A model generated the notes under the pieces. It was not told where the DNA came from, ran no database searches, and was given only the letters and a program-made list of their open reading frames with translations. Shown here in pieces: positions 9,412-64,000 of a DNA stretch of 64,000 bases. The position numbers and the translations under genes were made by a program. The stretch is taken from the IMG/VR virus record IMGVR_UViG_3300034157_000062, one strand, 5' to 3'. Position 1 is the first letter of the stretch; each line of letters starts with the position of its first letter. The stretch is from an uncultured virus (IMG/VR IMGVR_UViG_3300034157_000062) (taxonomy: Duplodnaviria > Heunggongvirae > Uroviricota > Caudoviricetes).

Positions 9412-11178
9412 ATGAACCAAGAATTTTCTGATATTTCTGCAAACTACAATAACTCTTCAAGATTTACACATTGTATTGGCTATGTTAAGTCCCTTCCATT
9501 TAAAGATATGGTGGATTTTAGTGTGCTTTCATTAAATGTTAAGTATCGAGACATCCTAGTGCCGTTCTCTTCTGTCAAACAATATTTGCAAAACAATCAA
9601 TATCATATGATCTCAATCCAAGGTGATGAGGAAATTGATGCTAAATATCGTTCATTGAACGAAATGAATACGATAAAAACGATAAAAAGCAATTTTACTC
9701 AATTGACAGTATTAGCTGATGAAGCCGGTGCTGATTATGCAGATTTATTAGATCAGGTTAATAGATTAGAACAATTTAATGCTGAACTATTAGAACCAAT
9801 CAAAAGGACGATTGATTATTCATCTGAATTAGGGATGTTATGCCCCTACCTAGTCAAAAGTAAAAACCTTGCAACCCACGCAACCTATTTAGAAATGCTT
9901 AATGAGTTGAATGCAGAGTATAAAGATGTTTTAGTTGATAATTCATATTATGATATTTTTGAAAATATTAAAAAAGTGACTGATAAAAATGTTATTGAGT
10001 TTAAAGGTATTCTTGATAATCTCATAGATAGAATAAATGAGGCGAACCCAGAAGTTTTATCTACGATGAGTTCTAAATATGTAGCAGAATTAAACAGTTC
10101 TACTGGTGATATTTCTCAATTTCTATTAGATAAGACATTTGATGAAACCATTACTGCAGCGATCAAACTAGAAGAAAACCAAAAAATTCAAGCGTACATT
10201 ATCTTTAAGGACAATAGCATTGCTGTAAAGAGTAAAGGAAAATTTTCTACCGTTAATACAATGGATGAACTAGATGACACTTTTACTGGGTTAAAAGAAA
10301 GTATTGTTGCGTATAAATTAAAGAAACGTCCAAAAATAGCGAAATTTTTTATAGGATTAGCCAAGGAGAGTATTCATTTTGATCATTGCATGAATGCTAT
10401 GAATACTTTTCTAGATAATGAACAAGTTTTAAAAAATATGAAAATGGACTTCAATCTTTTTGTTGACAAATCATTTGAAGTGATTGATGACCATATGAAC
10501 GCTTTAATCAGTGAACATAAAACTCATCAATATGCTAATAGTATTCTGAGTAATAAAAACAAACATCTTTTAAGCCCAACGAGCATGATTTCATTCAAAC
10601 AGCTTAAAGAAATGGATGTCACAGAAACCGAATTACAAAATATTATAGGCAAGAAGATAGCGGCTATTAAAACACCAGAAGATCTTGAAGCTTATTTAGT
10701 TAAAGTGGTGGGGCAATATACTGGATTTAGTCATGAAGCTGTTTCTAGTAAGTTAGAACGTGCTGGCATTCAACCTGTTTACGATGAAGGTCAAGTATTA
10801 GTATTCCCAGTGAAAGAGTATAAAGATTCAAAAGAATTAGGTAGCCCTAGCTGGTGTATTGTCAGAACAGAAAGCTATTTTGACACGTATACCGATTATG
10901 ATAAGAAACAATACTTCATGTATGACTTTAATAAGAATGAAAAAGACAATGAATCTTTAATAGGGTTTACATTAACTTATGATGGTGAGTTTCATACACA
11001 ACACCTTAGAAATGATGACTATTTGACAGTAGACGACAATTTACAACACATCGCTGACAAAATTATGTTTCGTGATAAAAATGATTTTAATTTAAGTAAA
11101 GAGAAATTAGCAAGCTTGGAAGATATGTTTAATAAGCAAATGAAAAAAACAACCAACAAACACAAACAAGGTGTATAA
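9412..11178 (+). CDS. hypothetical protein with C-terminal GSPSWCI (PcfJ-like) region and basic tail
   Basis: 588 aa; SKELGSPSWCI motif; ends KKTTNKHKQGV. Confidence 0.7.
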   Translation: MNQEFSDISANYNNSSRFTHCIGYVKSLPFKDMVDFSVLSLNVKYRDILVPFSSVKQYLQNNQYHMISIQGDEEIDAKYRSLNEMNTIKTIKSNFTQLTVLADEAGADYADLLDQVNRLEQFNAELLEPIKRTIDYSSELGMLCPYLVKSKNLATHATYLEMLNELNAEYKDVLVDNSYYDIFENIKKVTDKNVIEFKGILDNLIDRINEANPEVLSTMSSKYVAELNSSTGDISQFLLDKTFDETITAAIKLEENQKIQAYIIFKDNSIAVKSKGKFSTVNTMDELDDTFTGLKESIVAYKLKKRPKIAKFFIGLAKESIHFDHCMNAMNTFLDNEQVLKNMKMDFNLFVDKSFEVIDDHMNALISEHKTHQYANSILSNKNKHLLSPTSMISFKQLKEMDVTETELQNIIGKKIAAIKTPEDLEAYLVKVVGQYTGFSHEAVSSKLERAGIQPVYDEGQVLVFPVKEYKDSKELGSPSWCIVRTESYFDTYTDYDKKQYFMYDFNKNEKDNESLIGFTLTYDGEFHTQHLRNDDYLTVDDNLQHIADKIMFRDKNDFNLSKEKLASLEDMFNKQMKKTTNKHKQGV

Positions 11179-36069: not shown

Positions 36070-37200
36070 ATGAAATTTTCAAACATATTTTTTAACAACA
36101 GTTCTTTCGCTAAAGACAACACATCATTGAACTTGGTAGACTTAACAAAGAAAGCGTGCTTCTTTAACCAAGATTCATCTGGGATTTATTCAACGTTGTC
36201 ATTAGGCTATATCTTAGAGAAGAAGATAGAACGCATCATCGAAGAAGAATTATCAGAGATAGGTTTTTCACAAATGCGTTTAAGTTTAATTCAAGACGCT
36301 GATTTGTGGAAAGAAACGGGCCGATATGATCAATACGGTGAAGAACTATTCAAATTAAAAAACAGGGCTGGAAAAGAACTTGTTTTGAGTGCTACTTGTG
36401 AAGAATCCATCACGAACATTGTAAAGTCTTATTACAATTTCACTAAAACTAATTTGAAGATGTTCCAAATAGGCAATAAGTATAGAGATGAGTTAAGAGC
36501 TAAGTCTGGGTTAGTACGTGGCCGTGAGTTCTTAATGTCAGATGCTTATCATTTCTCTAACAGTAAAGAGAATATTGTCACAACTTACAATGAAGTCAGA
36601 GAGGCTTACACCAGAATATTTAGCCGTTTAGGTTTAGAGTTTCACATTCAAGGATCAGATGTAGGAGAAATGGGTGGATTAGCTTCCGAAGAATTCCGTT
36701 GCATTAGCGAATTTGGTGAAGACATTGGTGAAGATGGCAGTAAGAACCTTGAAATAGGTCACATCTTTAACTTGGGCACTCACTACTCTGAGAAAATGGG
36801 TTTGTTGGATAATATTAAGCAACACGTTAATATGGCTTGCTTTGGTATTGGTGTATCCAGAACATTGATGGCTTTGTTAGAGAAACAGAGAGATGACAAA
36901 GGTTTCTTTGGTACTGCAGCATTCAATACCTTTGATTACATTATCACAGCCATTGATTATGAGAAGAATAAAGAAGTTGCTGACTCTATTTATCAATCAT
37001 TAAAGAAACAAGGCTATACTGTGTTATTAGATGATAGAAATGTATCGGCTGGTAATAAGTTCAATGACAGTGAATTGATTGGCGTTAGTAATAGAATTAT
37101 TGTCAGTAACAAAAGTATTATTGCCAACGAATACGAAGTTTTAAACAGAGAAACAAATGTTGCGAAAACAGTGAGCCTTGAAACGTTAAAAACATTGTAA
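36070..37200 (+). CDS. proS: prolyl-tRNA synthetase, short form without INS editing domain
   Basis: LWKETGRY, ATCEE, KYRDELR...GREFLMSDAY, LEIGHIF, FGIGVSR, LLDDR anticodon-binding domain. Confidence 0.92.
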   Translation: MKFSNIFFNNSSFAKDNTSLNLVDLTKKACFFNQDSSGIYSTLSLGYILEKKIERIIEEELSEIGFSQMRLSLIQDADLWKETGRYDQYGEELFKLKNRAGKELVLSATCEESITNIVKSYYNFTKTNLKMFQIGNKYRDELRAKSGLVRGREFLMSDAYHFSNSKENIVTTYNEVREAYTRIFSRLGLEFHIQGSDVGEMGGLASEEFRCISEFGEDIGEDGSKNLEIGHIFNLGTHYSEKMGLLDNIKQHVNMACFGIGVSRTLMALLEKQRDDKGFFGTAAFNTFDYIITAIDYEKNKEVADSIYQSLKKQGYTVLLDDRNVSAGNKFNDSELIGVSNRIIVSNKSIIANEYEVLNRETNVAKTVSLETLKTL

Positions 37201-46182: not shown

Positions 46183-46266
46183 TGGTGCGGAAAGTGGGAC
46201 TCGAACCCACACGCCTCTCGGCACTGGCTTCTAAGACCAGCGTGTCTACCATTCCACCATTTCCGC
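46183..46266 (-). tRNA. tRNA-Leu(TAG)
   Basis: cloverleaf, CTGGT-CTTAGAA-GCCAG, long variable arm, A73, encoded CCA. Confidence 0.95.
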
Positions 46267-46323
46267 ATAGACATTAACACTTCTTTTAAATATAGTTTAA
46301 ATAAACGTTTATTTTGTAAGAAA

Positions 46324-46404
46324 GTATTGAAGCTGCCTAGGATTCGAACCTATATCTTCCAATAGCACTTTTCCGCATCTTGCTTAGGATGGCAACTCCA
46401 ATAC
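46324..46404 (-). ncRNA. tRNA-like element with shrunken arms
   Basis: 14-bp terminal stem, intact T arm TAGG-TTCGAAT-CCTA, reduced D/anticodon/variable hairpins, no CCA. Confidence 0.5.
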
Positions 46405-46409
46405 AAATC

Positions 46410-46495
46410 TGGTGCCCGAAGACGGATTCGAACCGTCACTCCCTCACGGGAAGGGGATTTTAAGTCCCCCGCGTCTACCATTTCGCCATTCGGGC
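46410..46495 (-). tRNA. tRNA-Leu(TAA)
   Basis: GGGGA-CTTAAAA-TCCCC anticodon arm, ACCA end. Confidence 0.95.
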
Positions 46496-46506
46496 ATAAA
46501 AATCAG

Positions 46507-46604
46507 TAATTCAATATTTTAGAATGCATTTCAGCAAGCGTGTCTACCACTCCACCACCCCGTGTAAACACGAGAAAAGGATTCGAACCTTCGATATTGA
46601 ATTA
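46507..46604 (-). ncRNA. circularly permuted tRNA-Leu-like module
   Basis: 11-bp closing stem; order T arm, loop-closed 7-bp acceptor stem, Leu-type D arm, mini anticodon hairpin. Confidence 0.75.
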
Positions 46605-46608
46605 AATC

Positions 46609-46693
46609 TGGTCCCCGGAGCCGGACTCGAACCGGCACGCCTTTCAGCGGGAGATTTTAAGTCTCCTGTGTCTACCAATTCCACCATCCGGGG
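46609..46693 (-). tRNA. tRNA-Leu(TAA)
   Basis: GGAGA-CTTAAAA-TCTCC, ACCA end. Confidence 0.95.
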
Positions 46694-46712
46694 ATAAACA
46701 CATGTATCAATC

Positions 46713-46796
46713 TGGTGCGTTAGGTGAGACTCGAACTCACAATCCTTTCGGCACTGGCTTCTTAGACCAGCGTGTATACCATTCCACCACTAACGC
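46713..46796 (-). tRNA. tRNA-Leu(AAG)
   Basis: CTGGT-CTAAGAA-GCCAG, ACCA end. Confidence 0.93.
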
Positions 46797-46804
46797 ATAA
46801 TTTG

Positions 46805-46961
46805 TTACTTAGAACAGGAGTCGAACCTGTACGTTATAGAAGGCTATGCCTGTGTCTACCAATTCCACGACCTAATCATTTCTGCTTAGGGAAGGATTCG
46901 AACCTTCATCTATAACAAGAAGCTAGGCTTCTCGTGTCTACCACTTTCACCATCTAAGTAA
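46805..46961 (-). ncRNA. double tRNA-like RNA (permuted tRNA nested in the variable arm of a tRNA)
   Basis: two D arms and two T arms in order D-T-D-T with all connecting stems paired; see findings. Confidence 0.8.
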
Positions 46962-46963
46962 TC

Positions 46964-47047
46964 TGGTGCGGAAGGTGGGACTCGAACCCACACGCCTCAC
47001 GGCACTGGTTTCTAAGACCAGCAAGTCTACCATTTCATCACTTCCGC
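46964..47047 (-). tRNA. tRNA-Leu(TAG)
   Basis: CTGGT-CTTAGAA-ACCAG, ACCA end. Confidence 0.95.
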
Positions 47048-47069
47048 GTGATATTGCTTTACATCAATT

Positions 47070-47153
47070 TGGTGCCCCGAGGGAGACTCGAACTCCCACT
47101 CCTTTCGGAAGCGGATTTTGAATCCGCCGCGTCTACCATTCCGCCATCGGGGC
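47070..47153 (-). tRNA. tRNA-Leu(CAA)
   Basis: GCGGA-TTCAAAA-TCCGC, ACCA end. Confidence 0.95.
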
Positions 47154-47185
47154 TTATGTTGTAGCTACATTTGTTACTATAAATC

Positions 47186-47269
47186 TGGTGCGATTGGAGA
47201 GACTTGAACTCTCAATCCTTGCGGCATTGGCTTCTTAGACCAACGTGTATACCATTCCACCACAATCGC
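47186..47269 (-). tRNA. tRNA-Leu(AAG)
   Basis: TTGGT-CTAAGAA-GCCAA, ACCA end. Confidence 0.93.
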
Positions 47270-47272
47270 ATA

Positions 47273-47364
47273 TCTTAATGAGTAAAGGGACTCGAACCCT
47301 TACGCCTTTTAGGGGCATGTCTACGCTTAGACATTATGGCTACCATTACATCATACTCATAAGA
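47273..47364 (-). ncRNA. tRNA-Leu-like element with abnormal anticodon loop and no CCA
   Basis: acceptor ATGAGTA/TACTCAT, D arm, ATGTCTA-AGCG-TAGACAT, variable arm, AAGGG-TTCGAGT-CCCTT. Confidence 0.7.
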
Positions 47365-47455
47365 GGTTTGACTTTGATAATAGTGAGTTACAAATAATTA
47401 CTATGTTTCAAAGTTTCCAGTGGGAACCGGAGCAACCTAATTTTAAATCTTCATT

Positions 47456-47540
47456 TGGTGCGGAAGGTGAGACTTGAACTCACAATCAATTAAGAAACTG
47501 CTTTTGAGACAGTCGCGTTTACCAGTTTCGCCACATCCGC
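47456..47540 (-). tRNA. tRNA-Leu(CAA)
   Basis: ACTGT-CTCAAAA-GCAGT, ACCA end; one T-T mismatch in acceptor stem. Confidence 0.9.
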
Positions 47541-59426: not shown

Positions 59427-59708
59427 TCAGAAGTATTCTGCATTCATATTTGCATTTACTTTCTTAACAAATTCGTCCACATTTATAAAAATGTTTTTTA
59501 CGAGGTCTTTATTGTTTTTAACAAACTCAGCATTTTCTTCAATAACCAATTCTACAACAGTGTTGATGTAAAAATTTAAAAGTTCCTCTAATTTCAAGAG
59601 TTCTTCTAAGTCCGACTTCAATAATGCATCTCTGTCTAATGAATCAAACTTTTCTTTTATTGCAAGAAGCTTTATTGATAAGTCGTTTACTTTCTCTAAA
59701 AAAGTCAT
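59427..59708 (-). CDS. hypothetical protein
   Basis: 93 aa, AGGAG RBS. Confidence 0.65.
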   Translation of the reverse strand: MTFLEKVNDLSIKLLAIKEKFDSLDRDALLKSDLEELLKLEELLNFYINTVVELVIEENAEFVKNNKDLVKNIFINVDEFVKKVNANMNAEYF

Positions 59709-59943
59709 GTTTTGCGTCTCCTATTATTTTTTAATGGTGTCTCTCATAATTTAATAACATAATTTATAAAAAAAGAAAGCATGAATGGTATTTTAATCCT
59801 ATTAATTTTTGTTATCATCATTGACGCCAATAATATTATCCATTTGAGTATAGCATTATAATGCGAAATATCCTTCGTTTTTTGACTTTTATCTTTATTT
59901 TATAAAATTTTGGCATGATTTTTGATTTTTTAAATTATTTCTT

Positions 59944-59961
59944 TGTAAGCTTTGTCTTATG
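59944..59961 (+). promoter_or_regulatory. GacA/UvrY-box-like upstream activating sequence
   Basis: TGTAAG-N6-CTTATG versus consensus TGTAAG-N6-CTTACA. Confidence 0.5.
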
Positions 59962-60246
59962 CTGGTTGTGGCGATTTACTCATATGATGATAATCTGCTA
60001 TCTTGCAAAATACCCTAAATTGTCATTTCGGCATTGCAAAAAACTTGATTTATTTATCATTTGACTATAAATAAATAACATATACAAAAAACTCTATATA
60101 AAACAACTTTTTATTGAATATAGTATTTAAATATCATTTTATAAAAAACCTTAAAAATAGCGTTTTTTAAATGGCGTCAATAAAAAATCTTGCAAAATGC
60201 TACAAAATTTAGTTGACAGTAAAAAAAATCCTGTTAGTATGTAATT

Positions 60247-60533
60247 GTCAGCAAGGAAACAATAAGAATAACTGCATAAGAAATGATTTTGAGTGTGGGC
60301 TGGCAAGTGTAATGGACGACAATAAAAAAAGGAATAGTGATTCAAGGATGTAGCAATTATCAGGATGATAAGTTAAGGACTCACTCTATAAAGGACTGTT
60401 ACAAGGAAAAGGAAGACAAATTAGAATTAAAGATGGAATATGTTCTAGTTTATTTACAAGGATAGTAGTTTTGTTTTAATGGATGTATAAACCAAAGGAA
60501 TGATAAGAGAGTCGAAAGGCTCTCTTTTTTTTT
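60247..60533 (+). ncRNA. CsrB/RsmZ-type CsrA(RsmA)-sequestering sRNA
   Basis: 13 GGA motifs (12 in ANGGA context), hairpin TTATCA-GGA-TGATAA, TTGACA promoter at 60213, terminator 60505-60533. Confidence 0.8.
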
Positions 60534-60574
60534 CTTCATTTTTTGTGGTATACTGAAAAGAAAACGAGATTAGC

Positions 60575-61207
60575 ATGATTAACGAATTAAAAGAAAAATA
60601 TAACGCCCTCGCTGTATTCCCTTATGGATCTAACGTCTACAAAAATAAAACCCCAGAAGATTTAGACTTTATCATTGTCAGTGATAAGCCTTATTTTCAA
60701 GAACAGTTTGAAAAAAACGATATTAAATATGAAATCAGCAATTACAGTAAAGATGAGTTCTTGGCTCGTTTACAGGAACATGAAATTTCTGTTTTAGAAT
60801 GTTTGTATATTCCACATAAAGAAAAATACCTCGACCCATCACTTAGCCGTGAGATTGAAGGATTTACGTTAGATAAAGAAAAGTTAAGAGAAAGCTGTTC
60901 TCAGAAAAGTTCTAATAGCTATGTTAAAGCTAAAAAGAAACTGACGGTTGAAGAGGATTTTAATTTAAGTGTTTCTTATAAGTCATTGTGGCATTCACTT
61001 CGTATCTTAGATTTTGGTATGCAGATAGCTAAGACTAATAAAATTAATCCAGAAAGCTGCAATGCATTATATGATCAAGTCATTAAAGATTATCTGCTGA
61101 TGAAGAATGATTGGTCTAAACTTCACGAAAAGTATAAACCAATGCATAATGCAATATCCTCAGAATTTAAACAAATGTGCCCTAAAAAGATTCACAAATG
61201 TAAGTGA
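60575..61207 (+). CDS. Pol-beta-superfamily nucleotidyltransferase
   Basis: YGSNVY...EDLDFIIV motif; helical C-terminal domain KSLWHSLRILDFG. Confidence 0.75.
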   Translation: MINELKEKYNALAVFPYGSNVYKNKTPEDLDFIIVSDKPYFQEQFEKNDIKYEISNYSKDEFLARLQEHEISVLECLYIPHKEKYLDPSLSREIEGFTLDKEKLRESCSQKSSNSYVKAKKKLTVEEDFNLSVSYKSLWHSLRILDFGMQIAKTNKINPESCNALYDQVIKDYLLMKNDWSKLHEKYKPMHNAISSEFKQMCPKKIHKCK

Positions 61208-61847
61208 AGGTGGCTAGAAATAGCAACAACATAAAGCCTTCACCGTCATGGGTGTTATGATTAGCAACACTCATGTCATAAAATTTGTAAAATTTATCAA
61301 TCTTATCACCTACGATAGCTTTAATAGGCTCTTGATCACCTCTTTCAAAGCATTCAGCAATGGCAGCAACACAAAACTTAAGAGCCGTCTTTCTATTCAG
61401 ACCCAAGCTTGTTAAGATATCTTCAACTTCTGTTACTTTTAAATCATAAGGGTTGATTTCAATTCCTGTTTCTTTGTAATACATATGCATGAACAGGTTA
61501 ACAGTCATTGAACAGTTTTCTAAAATAAAATATTTCTCAACTTCTTCTGCTATGCAATTTTTTGTGCTGACCAATTGATCAATTTCGAATAAGACAAGGT
61601 TCCTGTACGGAGAAGTCGTATTTTCAATGTAATCATTTAGATAGTTATATAATGTAGCCATATGACTGTCTGGGTTGGATGTGCTATTGAGCCTATGCAT
61701 CATCTTTCTTTCAATATTATAGATGAACATTCTCTGGTTAAGAATATTCGCGGCAAACATCTCAATATTATCAGAAAACGTATCTTTAAACGCCTCTTCC
61801 ATTCGATGTAAGTCTGATACATAATCATTCAATGCGACTTGAGTCAT
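61182..61847 (-). CDS. hypothetical protein
   Basis: 221 aa, AGGAG RBS, convergent overlap with ORF 60575. Confidence 0.7.
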   Translation of the reverse strand: MTQVALNDYVSDLHRMEEAFKDTFSDNIEMFAANILNQRMFIYNIERKMMHRLNSTSNPDSHMATLYNYLNDYIENTTSPYRNLVLFEIDQLVSTKNCIAEEVEKYFILENCSMTVNLFMHMYYKETGIEINPYDLKVTEVEDILTSLGLNRKTALKFCVAAIAECFERGDQEPIKAIVGDKIDKFYKFYDMSVANHNTHDGEGFMLLLFLATFTYICESF

Positions 61848-61969: not shown

Positions 61970-64000
61970 ATGAGAATTGTTTACTTCTTATCAGCCATGC
62001 CGGGAACAGGTAAGTCTACTTTTATTAGAGAACATGGTTTAGATGCTCACAGCTTATCACTTGACGCTATCAGACATATTTATGCTGGTGCCGCTACTGA
62101 TATGGATGGCCGTCTTGTGCTGTCTAACAATAGAGAAGATTTAGTCTTTGGTAAATTTATGGAAGCTCTTGAATTGAGACTTCAAATGGGTGGTGTTCTC
62201 TTTATTGATAACCTCAACCAAGATCAAAAAGCGATTGATTCCTATATGGAACTTTTGACTAAGTTTGATTATGATTACCGTGTGGTTCAATTCCCATTGC
62301 AGCCAGTAGAATTCTATTATGCTCGTAATGAACAACGTGAACCTTATAAAAGATTGCCAAAAGAAGCCATTGATAGAAACTATGTGCTATTCACGAATGC
62401 TTCATTTGATGATAGTTCTAAAATCATTAGTCCAGAAGAAGCTATTAAGTTTGTCAAAGCAACACCAGAAGATTTGATAGTTGATTTGAGTGCTTACAAG
62501 AAGATACATTATATTGGTGATCTTCAAGGATCTTTCTATCCATTAAAAAGATACTTTGAACTAGAAGGTGGTTTAAAAAAAGATGAATTCTACATTTTTG
62601 TAGGTGATTACCTTGATCGTGGCATTGAAAATGATAAGTGCCTTCACTTTGTAAGAAAATATATGGAATATCCGAATGTCTTATTTCTTGCGGGTAACCA
62701 TGAGAAGCATTTGTATAACTACAGTCATAACATCTATACACCACCCGATGAATTTATGAAGAATACTTTACCACAACTTGAAAAAGCTGGGTTTACAAAA
62801 GATGACATGAAAGAGTTGTATAGAAAAATGCACTTGTTTAGTTTTGTTCAATACAATGGCAAAAAGATTATGACTACACATGCTGGATTGACTGCTGTGC
62901 CTGAGTTTCCACGTCTTTTAAACTCTGATGAGTACATGCGTGGTTATGGTCCTTATAGCTATGATGTAGATGGTAAGTTTAATGAGCAGAACAAAGATAA
63001 TGAATGGCATCAAGTTCATGGTCATAGAAATCAACATAAATTAGACTTTAATAGTTATGCTAAAAGCTTTGCTTTGGAAGCTGATGTGGAATACGGTGGT
63101 AGCTTACCCGTATTGAGAGTAAGCCGTGAAGGTTTTAATGGTATCTACATTACTAACAAAGTTTTTAATAAAGAAGAAGTTCTTAAAATTGAAAAAGATT
63201 CTGGTATGTTTGGTGTTGCTGAAACCGAAAGCACAGTAGCTAATTTCTTGAACCGTAAAGTAGATGGTCATAAAACAGGTGTTGCATTGCTTCAGGATCT
63301 TAGAAGTAATCAGTTATTGGTAGAAACGGTTTCTATTTCAAATCCTCACTTGTCCACTTTTAATTTTAAAGATGATGTTGTGGGTCAGCCACTTGATGAA
63401 TCATCTGTGAAAATTCGTGGACTTGTTATTAACAATAAAACAGGAGATATTGTTGCTCGTGGTTTTGATAAGTTTTATGAGCTTGATGAAAAAGGTATTG
63501 CATCTAATACATTAGAAGCTCTTAAATCGAAAACAACGGGTTCATTAAATGTGTTTGAACAAGAAGATGGTCGTTTGGCGATGATTGGTTATGATGTTGA
63601 AAATACAGCGTTGGTATTTACCTCGAAGAATGGCATTGATACACCAGAAACAGAAGCCTTTAAAAAGATGGTATTAAGTAACCTAAAAACAAGTGAACTT
63701 GAGTTTATGAAAGTGTTTGCGAACAAACACAATGTTAACTACATTTTTGAAGTCATTGATCCAGTCAATGATCCAAAGATTATTAAAGCTGATGAACCTT
63801 CAATTGTTTTATTATCTGTTGTGAAGCGTGATGTTGTATTCTCACAATTGACATATGAAAACTTAGAAGCTTTTGCTGGTAATTTTGAAAAGCTTGATGC
63901 GAAAAAGAAATTTGTTAGTTTTAGCACGTTTGAAAGTTTTGAGAAATTTTGTAATGCATTAAGCAATGAGAGTGCATTCAAGACAAAAAGACACATGGAA
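61970..64000 (+). CDS. Pnkp-like polynucleotide kinase / metallophosphoesterase / RNA ligase fusion (runs off window; absent from ORF track)
   Basis: MRIVYFLSAMPGTGKST P-loop; GDLQG, GDYLDRG, GNHE, THAG, VHGH; RGL...IVARGFDKF ligase region; frame open to 64000. Confidence 0.9.
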   Translation, partial: MRIVYFLSAMPGTGKSTFIREHGLDAHSLSLDAIRHIYAGAATDMDGRLVLSNNREDLVFGKFMEALELRLQMGGVLFIDNLNQDQKAIDSYMELLTKFDYDYRVVQFPLQPVEFYYARNEQREPYKRLPKEAIDRNYVLFTNASFDDSSKIISPEEAIKFVKATPEDLIVDLSAYKKIHYIGDLQGSFYPLKRYFELEGGLKKDEFYIFVGDYLDRGIENDKCLHFVRKYMEYPNVLFLAGNHEKHLYNYSHNIYTPPDEFMKNTLPQLEKAGFTKDDMKELYRKMHLFSFVQYNGKKIMTTHAGLTAVPEFPRLLNSDEYMRGYGPYSYDVDGKFNEQNKDNEWHQVHGHRNQHKLDFNSYAKSFALEADVEYGGSLPVLRVSREGFNGIYITNKVFNKEEVLKIEKDSGMFGVAETESTVANFLNRKVDGHKTGVALLQDLRSNQLLVETVSISNPHLSTFNFKDDVVGQPLDESSVKIRGLVINNKTGDIVARGFDKFYELDEKGIASNTLEALKSKTTGSLNVFEQEDGRLAMIGYDVENTALVFTSKNGIDTPETEAFKKMVLSNLKTSELEFMKVFANKHNVNYIFEVIDPVNDPKIIKADEPSIVLLSVVKRDVVFSQLTYENLEAFAGNFEKLDAKKKFVSFSTFESFEKFCNALSNESAFKTKRHME

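Follow-up and report, generated by a model that had tools for sequence, protein, structure and literature searches.

The window analysed here, a 64,000-nt stretch of DNA from an uncultured virus (IMG/VR record IMGVR_UViG_3300034157_000062), probably contains at 60247-60534 (+) the gene of a small RNA (sRNA) that acts as a sponge for proteins of the CsrA/RsmA family and that stands under a GacA/UvrY-type box. An initial annotation had proposed an element-encoded Csr/Rsm sponge sRNA wired to the GacA/UvrY system of the host. The sponge reading and the wiring proved well supported in silico, through conserved GGA cores, five features common to known CsrA-regulating sRNAs, and a box held at a constant distance from the promoter; a foreign element within a host cell, as the nature of the carrier, is put forward far more tentatively.

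A GGA-rich unit between a promoter and a terminator

The putative sponge RNA, ~288 nt long, lies in an 866-bp gap (59709-60574) between a 93-amino acid (aa) gene on the minus strand (59427-59708) and a 210-aa gene on the plus strand (60575-61207), and is thus intergenic. The top promoter-like site of this gap is a sigma-70-type sequence at 60213-60240 (+), with TTGACA at 60213, a 16-nt spacer, and the extended -10 TG-n-TAGTAT (10 of 12 matches, TG present), from which we infer a start site at about 60247. The gap holds a single terminator-like site, an intrinsic terminator at 60505-60535 (+) with a 9-bp stem, a GAAA loop and a U run (stem-loop 60505-60526). The unit had first been described as an ORF-less segment of about 290 nt running from a TTGACA promoter to a strong terminator. 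Both signals were borne out, while "ORF-less" needs amending: open reading frames (ORFs) of 40-64 aa overlap the unit, although none is conserved in its relatives.

Thirteen GGA motifs are found between 60255 and 60497 (+), 12 of them as A.GGA and 10 as AGGA, which reproduces the counts reported at the outset (13 GGA, 12 as ANGGA). For comparison, 290-nt sliding windows over the 64 kb contain a mean of 2.19 GGA (sd 1.61), and the next-best window reaches 8 on the plus strand and 7 on the minus strand. For A.GGA, the next-best window has 5, compared to 12 in the unit. The surrounding claim that the motifs stand in otherwise G-poor DNA did not hold, as the unit is purine-rich and G-skewed (G 66/288, C 28/288).

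This skew is the main point in favour of a chance cluster, or a composition artefact in AT-rich intergenic DNA, since it lifts the number of GGA expected after shuffling to about 7. Dinucleotide-preserving shuffles of the unit averaged 7.1 GGA, however, and reached 13 in just 2 of 1,000. Escherichia coli K-12 CsrB, run through the identical shuffle and accessibility script as a positive control, has 22 GGA in 369 nt, a count attained in 5 of 1,000 shuffles. The copies from two related genomes described below, L001 and L020, have 15 GGA in 312 nt (1 of 1,000) and 13 GGA in 274 nt (2 of 1,000), respectively. GGA density is 4.5-4.8 per 100 nt in the three copies versus 6.0 for E. coli CsrB; Vibrio fischeri CsrB1 is listed with 21 motifs in 416 nt in PMC1488887. 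A chance origin also sits poorly with motif positions kept in three genomes, with compensatory base pairs, and with the conservation of promoter, terminator and upstream box. It would require very recent common ancestry, yet the flanks of the locus are only 60-77% identical between genomes. We consider the probability of such an artefact to be minimal.

The sRNA is conserved in position and in its GGA cores

Relatives were sought using the downstream 210-aa gene, which has no Pfam, PHROG or NCBIfam match, as an anchor, in a scan of viral contigs followed by a scan of metagenomes. Of the relatives in the viral contigs, L001, in the 181,270-bp IMG/VR record G001, is close (anchor protein 91% identical in amino-acid sequence), whereas the other five, L002-L006, are distant (33-37%). 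The metagenomes added L019, in a 1,859,102-bp contig and without any difference from L001 over 6.6 kb, and L020 (68% amino-acid identity in the anchor protein), in a 1,539,155-bp contig. Three copies were compared, those of the window, L001 (equivalent to L019) and L020, giving two independent comparisons. For ~70 kb the window and G001 are collinear; nucleotide identity ranges from ~63 to 93%, and most of the long blocks fall at 67-80%.

In L001/L019 and L020, the sRNA occupies the same position upstream of the same neighbouring gene. The promoter is kept in both relatives in its -35, spacer length and -10, with the stretch 88-97% identical between genomes, and the terminator is invariant in all three. 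Twelve of the 13 GGA motifs of the window are present in every copy; the remaining one is deleted in L020. The bases around these cores vary (CAAGGAU / CACGGAG / AACGGA; AAUGGAU / AAAGGAA), and invariant alignment columns are more frequent within GGA (31/39) than in the rest of the RNA body (127/217; Fisher p = 0.013). Identity at aligned positions was higher in the sRNA than in the adjacent coding gene for each pair of genomes (92.9 vs 86.6%, 79.6 vs 75.0%, and 85.1 vs 76.9%).

The same comparison bears on a different explanation, in which the unit is a long regulatory leader of the 210-aa gene or a small-peptide locus. The terminator ends 40 nt before the ATG at 60575, and small ORFs overlap the unit, both of which fit that idea. 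The terminator is strong and invariant, however, and the downstream gene has an apparent extended -10 of its own, TGgTATACT at 60546-60554, which overlaps the terminator tail and is conserved. L002-L006, the distant homologues of the downstream gene, lack the unit entirely: no comparable GGA cluster was found in them, and the upstream DNA of L003, L005 and L006 was coding-like on reading, with no GGA-rich unit. No ORF of at least 25 aa is common to the three copies, and the indels between them (1, 2, 10 and ~27 nt) ignore the reading frame, not coming in multiples of three. A leader or peptide locus is thus very unlikely, and 60247-60534 is predicted to be a stand-alone non-coding RNA gene, neither a protein gene nor a leader.

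Other routes to relatives added nothing to this set. Phage and plasmid records searched with the DNA of 59700-61300 gave no match, and neither the Pnkp-like neighbouring gene as a viral-contig anchor nor two sRNA-derived DNA patterns run against viral contigs gave a relative beyond that in G001. A 20-nt terminator pattern run against 185,579 species genomes produced 25 matches, all unrelated generic terminators with 0-8 GGA upstream. One of these, L033 in the low-GC alphaproteobacterial genome G002, was set aside as unrelated; its GAPDH is 55% identical. No paralogues of the sRNA were found in the window or G001.

A consensus fold exposes GGA motifs

In the consensus fold of the three copies, most GGA motifs are unpaired. 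A conserved hairpin presents GGA as a triloop (UAUCA-GGA-UGAUR), and a second hairpin carries AUGGAAU inside a 14-nt loop, so the original statement that some GGA motifs lie in hairpin loops was upheld for these two. The 5' stem-loop contains three base pairs changed on both sides with pairing kept, from C-G to U-A twice and from A-U to G-C once. In all three copies, the G residues within GGA are less paired than other G residues.

A GacA/UvrY-type box lies at a fixed distance from the promoter

An 18-bp inverted repeat at 59944-59961, TGTAAGCTTTGTCTTATG, is a putative upstream activating site of the GacA/UvrY type. Passages of PMC8523701 give the GacA box of Pseudomonas and Marinomonas as TGTAAGN6CTTACA. 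According to PMC4682653, csrB and csrC of E. coli and Salmonella have an 18-nt inverted repeat bound by phospho-UvrY; that of csrB is centred at -183/-182, and that of csrC is far less symmetrical, yet bound. The box of the window is degenerate (TGTAAG-CTTTGT-CTTATG), with two mismatches to TGTAAG-N6-CTTACA, both in the right half-site. The orthologous box is the perfect TGTAAGCTTCCTCTTACA in both L001 and L020, and it is from these relatives, not from the window alone, that the box derives its significance. Across G001 (181,270 bp), no other site comes within one mismatch of the consensus; 0.02 perfect matches are expected, and shuffles average 0.74 at that tolerance.

Between L001 and L020, the box is 100% identical while the next 250 bp are ~63% identical with indels, making it an island of conservation. 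Its distance to the -35 is 269 bp in the window, 270 bp in L001 and 268 bp in L020. Such fixed spacing ties the box to the sRNA promoter rather than to the divergent gene. The initial estimate of ~290 bp upstream was accurate: the box begins 269 bp upstream of the -35 and is centred ~294 bp before the inferred start site.

Further motifs are conserved inside the otherwise diverged upstream DNA and may be additional regulator sites. TGCAAAA occurs three times on the plus strand, at 60004-60010 (~-244 from the start site; window and L020), 60035-60041 (~-213) and 60191-60197 (~-57), the latter two in the window, L020 and L001. Between the window and L020, the relative positions of all three are unchanged. 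TGGCAY-N5-TTTGR, at 59911-59926 (+) and 33-35 nt upstream of the box, is present in the alignments of the window, L001 and L020. It resembles a sigma-54 promoter, but without the -12 GC.

Probable assignment to the Csr/Rsm class of regulatory RNAs

Kulkarni et al. describe five features common to all known CsrA-regulating sRNAs: an intergenic location, a high density of AGGA/ARGGA, a rho-independent terminator, GGA motifs placed in loops or otherwise free, and conservation of an upstream site (PMC1488887). All five were found for the sRNA at 60247-60534, with GGA accessibility showing more weakly than in the CsrB control. The Rfam search proposed with the initial annotation did not place it in a Csr/Rsm family, as the gathering score returned eight tRNAs over the window and nothing else. 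The Csr/Rsm families in Rfam comprise CsrB, CsrC, RsmX, RsmY, RsmZ/PrrB and relatives. Csr/Rsm sRNA genes are described as not conserved in sequence in passages of PMC8523701, and members without an Rfam match are common in this class. The lack of such a match together with the five shared features suggests a sequence family that is new, within a functional kind that is known.

Several observations weigh against the assignment. GGA accessibility in the three copies (0.55-0.71) is clearly below that of E. coli CsrB (0.80). Expressed as the mean probability of being unpaired for GGA versus all bases, the values are 0.58 vs 0.45 in the window, 0.55 vs 0.44 in L001, 0.71 vs 0.49 in L020 and 0.80 vs 0.44 in CsrB. 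The whole-RNA fold is no more stable than shuffled sequences (z = -0.11), a value that would fit an RNA of short hairpins and open linkers, and with just three copies the covariation is thin. A permissive Rfam search (E up to 10) of 59700-60650 gave seven weak matches, none of them Csr/Rsm. A box with two mismatches is not above chance in the window by itself (3 found vs 4.8 expected), and the divergent gene at 59427-59708 is in principle another candidate for its control. Its centre at about -294, compared to -183/-182 for E. coli csrB (PMC4682653), puts it ~110 bp further upstream, in line with the early remark that it lies further out than in chromosomal rsmZ/csrB. No strict IHF consensus was found between box and promoter. 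Among the proteins of the carrier, a CsrA Pfam search of the 181-kb G001 (E up to 1) gave no match, and no response-regulator domain was seen among the ORFs scanned over ~245 kb, the DNA surveyed here (window plus G001) from contigs of 1.5-1.9 Mb.

Part of this evidence could be taken to mean that the RNA is GGA/AAGGA-rich for the sake of a target other than CsrA, either as a Shine-Dalgarno mimic acting on the 30S subunit or the 3' end of 16S rRNA, or as a decoy for an RNA-binding protein encoded by the replicon. A further point on that side, and a further one against a CsrA sponge, is that 10 of the 13 motifs are AAGGA or AGGA and thus also a Shine-Dalgarno core. The lower accessibility relative to CsrB, the lack of a visible CsrA gene nearby, and the fact that most replicon proteins are of unknown function would all accommodate such a target. 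However, the conserved core is GGA, not GGAGG, and several sites are A(N)GGA presented in loops, as in UAUCA-GGA-UGAUR. In PMC4682653 and PMC1488887, the GacA-type box is tied specifically to CsrA-antagonist RNAs, and no precedent for the other target turned up in literature searches. We regard a non-CsrA target as improbable, and a CsrA/RsmA sponge under a GacA/UvrY-type box as the likely identity of the sRNA.

Proposed mode of action

If the sRNA is such a sponge, a phosphorylated response regulator of the GacA/UvrY family, supplied by the cell, would bind the distal repeat and activate the promoter, probably by bending the DNA or forming a loop, in the manner of E. coli csrB. The transcript would then bind several CsrA/RsmA dimers; with two GGA sites per dimer, one RNA could hold up to about six. 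Sequestration of CsrA would relieve its control and release CsrA-repressed mRNAs. With two positions of the right half-site lost, activation in the window may be weaker than in the relatives, and the perfect and two-mismatch boxes at the same ~294-bp distance offer a natural experiment.

The initial annotation also suggested effects on host motility, biofilm and secretion, which we can offer only by inference; any consequence for the cell would depend on the host. Passages of PMC8523701 report that the Gac/Csr pathway turns on CRISPR-Cas in Marinomonas, and those of PMC8450108 that the Rsm pathway also regulates CRISPR-Cas in Serratia. Since the pathway turns on CRISPR-Cas, a sponge on a foreign replicon would not readily pass for a weapon against defence; at a guess, such a replicon would more naturally use it on motility, biofilm or metabolism.

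The carrier DNA and its cell

Intrinsic terminators are enriched in this DNA (24 versus 9.1 +/- 2.6) and are located at gene ends, indicating that it is read by bacterial transcription machinery. A eukaryotic giant virus, considered on account of the aminoacyl-tRNA synthetase genes, Fpg, UvdE, AsnS and low GC, was ruled out by these bacterial-type terminators; the conserved sigma-70 promoter and GacA box, the YiaD/OmpA-family lipoproteins and the jumbo-phage genes also argue against it. The cell is most likely a gammaproteobacterium, as judged from gene relationships. Nearly all of the nearest named relatives of the TrxB encoded in the window are from Gammaproteobacteria, at ~70% identity, and the YiaD-family lipoprotein passes its equivalog cut-off. 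BarA-UvrY is presented as characteristic of Gammaproteobacteria in PMC4682653. The nearest named relatives of GAPDH, on the other hand, are from Alphaproteobacteria (56-60%), so gene origins appear mosaic.

As for the carrier itself, we weighed three possibilities. An autonomous giant phage-like replicon and an island or prophage of very large size within a small chromosome are both tentative, to an equal degree, and the chromosome of an unusual small-genome bacterium is unlikely. The last of these underlies the most substantial competing account of the sRNA, in which its function is unchanged and its context ordinary: the 1.5-1.9 Mb contigs would be chromosomes of uncultivated small-genome Gammaproteobacteria with their own csrB/rsmZ-type gene. 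The sizes of the contigs that hold the relatives (1,859,102 and 1,539,155 bp) agree with this account, as does the occurrence on contigs of 1.84-1.92 Mb of an orphan protein family of the window (9412-11178). The 181-kb G001 bears a provirus label in IMG/VR, implying that its flanks are cell-like. Genuine housekeeping enzymes are encoded as well, namely GAPDH, TrxB, Fpg, IleRS, a non-discriminating AspRS and PPAT/CoaE, with a ClpA-like protein below the model cut-off. The ~70% identity of TrxB to proteins of many gammaproteobacterial orders has the look of vertical descent, and a lone sRNA gene under a GacA box of the host type is to be expected on a chromosome.

The gene content of the surveyed DNA points the other way. 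Pfam domains were recognized in only 11 of 63 window ORFs (69 ORFs of at least 90 aa minus six that overlap longer ORFs) and in 33 of 113 from the part of G001 outside the overlap. At Rfam gathering thresholds, the only RNA genes in 185 kb (the window plus 121 kb of the relative) are tRNAs, with no rRNA, transfer-messenger RNA, RNase P or signal recognition particle RNA, and the Pfam hits to the ORFs of the window and G001 include no ribosomal-protein domain. The 25 tRNA genes of G001 form two redundant arrays within 181 kb, one of 13 that are mostly Leu-type and one of 12 of the Ala, Arg and Met types. Many genes are common to jumbo phages of Proteobacteria, and the RNA-repair set is large. 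The 3' end of the sRNA has no homologue in the 185,579 species genomes, and the mosaic gene origins, with GAPDH nearest to Alphaproteobacteria, are a further difficulty. We judge the ordinary chromosomal context rather unlikely.

Of the proteins compared with PHROG, 3/22 from the window and 15/86 from the relative gave matches. These are exclusively accessory (RNA ligase/Pnkp, MazG, DprA-like, HNH and radical-SAM-like), and some share 40-52% identity with proteins from jumbo phages that infect Pseudomonas, Caulobacter, Ralstonia, Xanthomonas and Erwinia. No structural virion or conjugation genes were seen among the proteins scanned from the window and G001, and a literature search on Mb-scale phages turned up nothing that matched. 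A carrier belonging to a family of non-cell replicons of 1.5-1.9 Mb, poor in Pfam domains but rich in phage genes, tRNA arrays and genes for RNA repair, which resides in a gammaproteobacterial host and brings its own CsrA-sponge RNA under the host GacS/GacA signal, is advanced as a tentative proposal.

Other genes of the window and its relative

The window contains a tRNA array at 46183-47540 (-) of 10 genes, comprising eight tRNA-Leu, an amber-suppressor-like tRNA (CTA anticodon) and a tRNA whose anticodon has four bases. The orthologous array of G001 (L011:17614-19500) has 13 tRNAs: 11 tRNA-Leu, a tRNA-Gln and, again, a tRNA with four anticodon bases. Its second array (L015:16104-18247) has 12, namely seven tRNA-Ala, three tRNA-Arg and two of tRNA-Met type, a total that includes one unassigned gene. 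At 61970-64000 (+), running off the end of the window, a fused kinase-phosphatase-RNA ligase (AAA_33 + Metallophos + RNA_lig_T4_1) matches phrog_8238 (E 6e-120) and is ~30% identical to SPbeta-like, Twort-like and other phage proteins. Further RNA-repair genes in G001 encode RtcB, a HAD_SAK_2 domain protein and another RNA ligase (L008:8791-10224, L016:1057-1506 and L016:18869-19474). Together, the tRNA arrays and RNA-repair genes look like a counter-measure to tRNA-cleaving defences.

A 588-aa orphan protein encoded at 9412-11178 (+) has no Pfam domain and 59 homologues, several of which occur on contigs of 1,539,155, 1,843,594, 1,851,360 and 1,917,244 bp, sometimes as two paralogues per contig. 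This distribution points to a recurrent family of genomes or replicons of 1.5-1.9 Mb. A ProRS-like gene at 36070-37200 (+) encodes 376 aa with two stretches that match bacterial proline-tRNA ligase models, the central editing domain being missing; G001 encodes a short IleRS (840 aa), and its non-discriminating AspRS is of archaeal type.

Among the orphans, the window and G001 encode the cell-like enzymes UvdE, GAPDH, an AsnB-type asparagine synthase, TrxB and Fpg, as well as nucleoside 2-deoxyribosyltransferase and CNNM and AI-2E transporters. G001 additionally has a eukaryote-type protein kinase, a NIF phosphatase, PTH2, SIR2, a HipA-like kinase, a PilS-like pilin and YiaD/OmpA lipoproteins. 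On the minus strand of G001 (L013:3613-9378), seven genes encoding 247-284 aa follow one another in tandem, with no Pfam match (7/7 scanned) and no PHROG match (2/7 scanned); their equal size and order suggest a possible paralogue family.

Significance and comparison with known Csr/Rsm systems

Csr/Rsm sponge RNAs evolve too fast for homology detection, and a further family, equipped with a textbook GacA box and found in a low-GC lineage that is uncultivated, would widen the known range of Gac-Csr control. What else follows depends on the carrier. If it is an odd small-genome gammaproteobacterial chromosome, the sRNA would be ordinary and serve mainly as evidence for a gammaproteobacterial lineage. 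If it is a giant phage-like replicon, a mobile element would have captured the RNA arm of a global regulator of its host and wired it to the host sensor kinase pathway. A non-cell carrier would be the first foreign replicon to steer Csr/Rsm by an antagonist RNA and not by a CsrA-like protein. Where the pathway controls defence, as passages of PMC8523701 describe for CRISPR-Cas in Marinomonas, its reach would extend into immunity. Full-text literature searches found no report of an element-borne sponge RNA, which is not proof of absence.

Compared to E. coli CsrB, the sRNA is likewise a stand-alone RNA of ~0.3 kb running from a promoter to an intrinsic terminator with dense GGA motifs. It differs in being AT-rich, in having no strict IHF site and no match to Rfam models, and in presenting GGA more in single-stranded linkers than in crisp hairpin loops. 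The distal 18-bp response-regulator repeat far upstream of the promoter is shared with E. coli csrB and csrC, as these are described in PMC4682653.

ANGGA/AGGA motifs and a rho-independent terminator are also found in RsmX, RsmY and RsmZ of Pseudomonas and in the predicted or verified Csr RNAs of V. fischeri (CsrB1/B2) and Marinomonas mediterranea (CsrB/CsrC). The sRNA is longer than RsmY and RsmZ. Whereas the Pseudomonas and marine gammaproteobacterial sets usually include at least two paralogues, one copy was found in 245 kb, and unlike the carriers of the Pseudomonas, Marinomonas and Vibrio RNAs, the DNA here is not recognizable as a bacterial chromosome. The box of the relatives is, letter for letter, the GacA box given for Pseudomonas and Marinomonas in passages of PMC8523701.

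Should the carrier be an element, its closest parallels in logic would be foreign replicons that reach the global post-transcriptional regulator of the host through a protein. Examples are RsmQ, a plasmid-borne CsrA-family protein (PMC9928087), and the csrA alleles of plasmids, phages and integrative and conjugative elements, with csrA reported on 161 of 20,668 plasmids and in 30 phages (PMC7366521). Those replicons add a CsrA-family protein; the one described here would instead add an antagonist RNA, acting with the opposite sign and borrowing the GacA input of the host.

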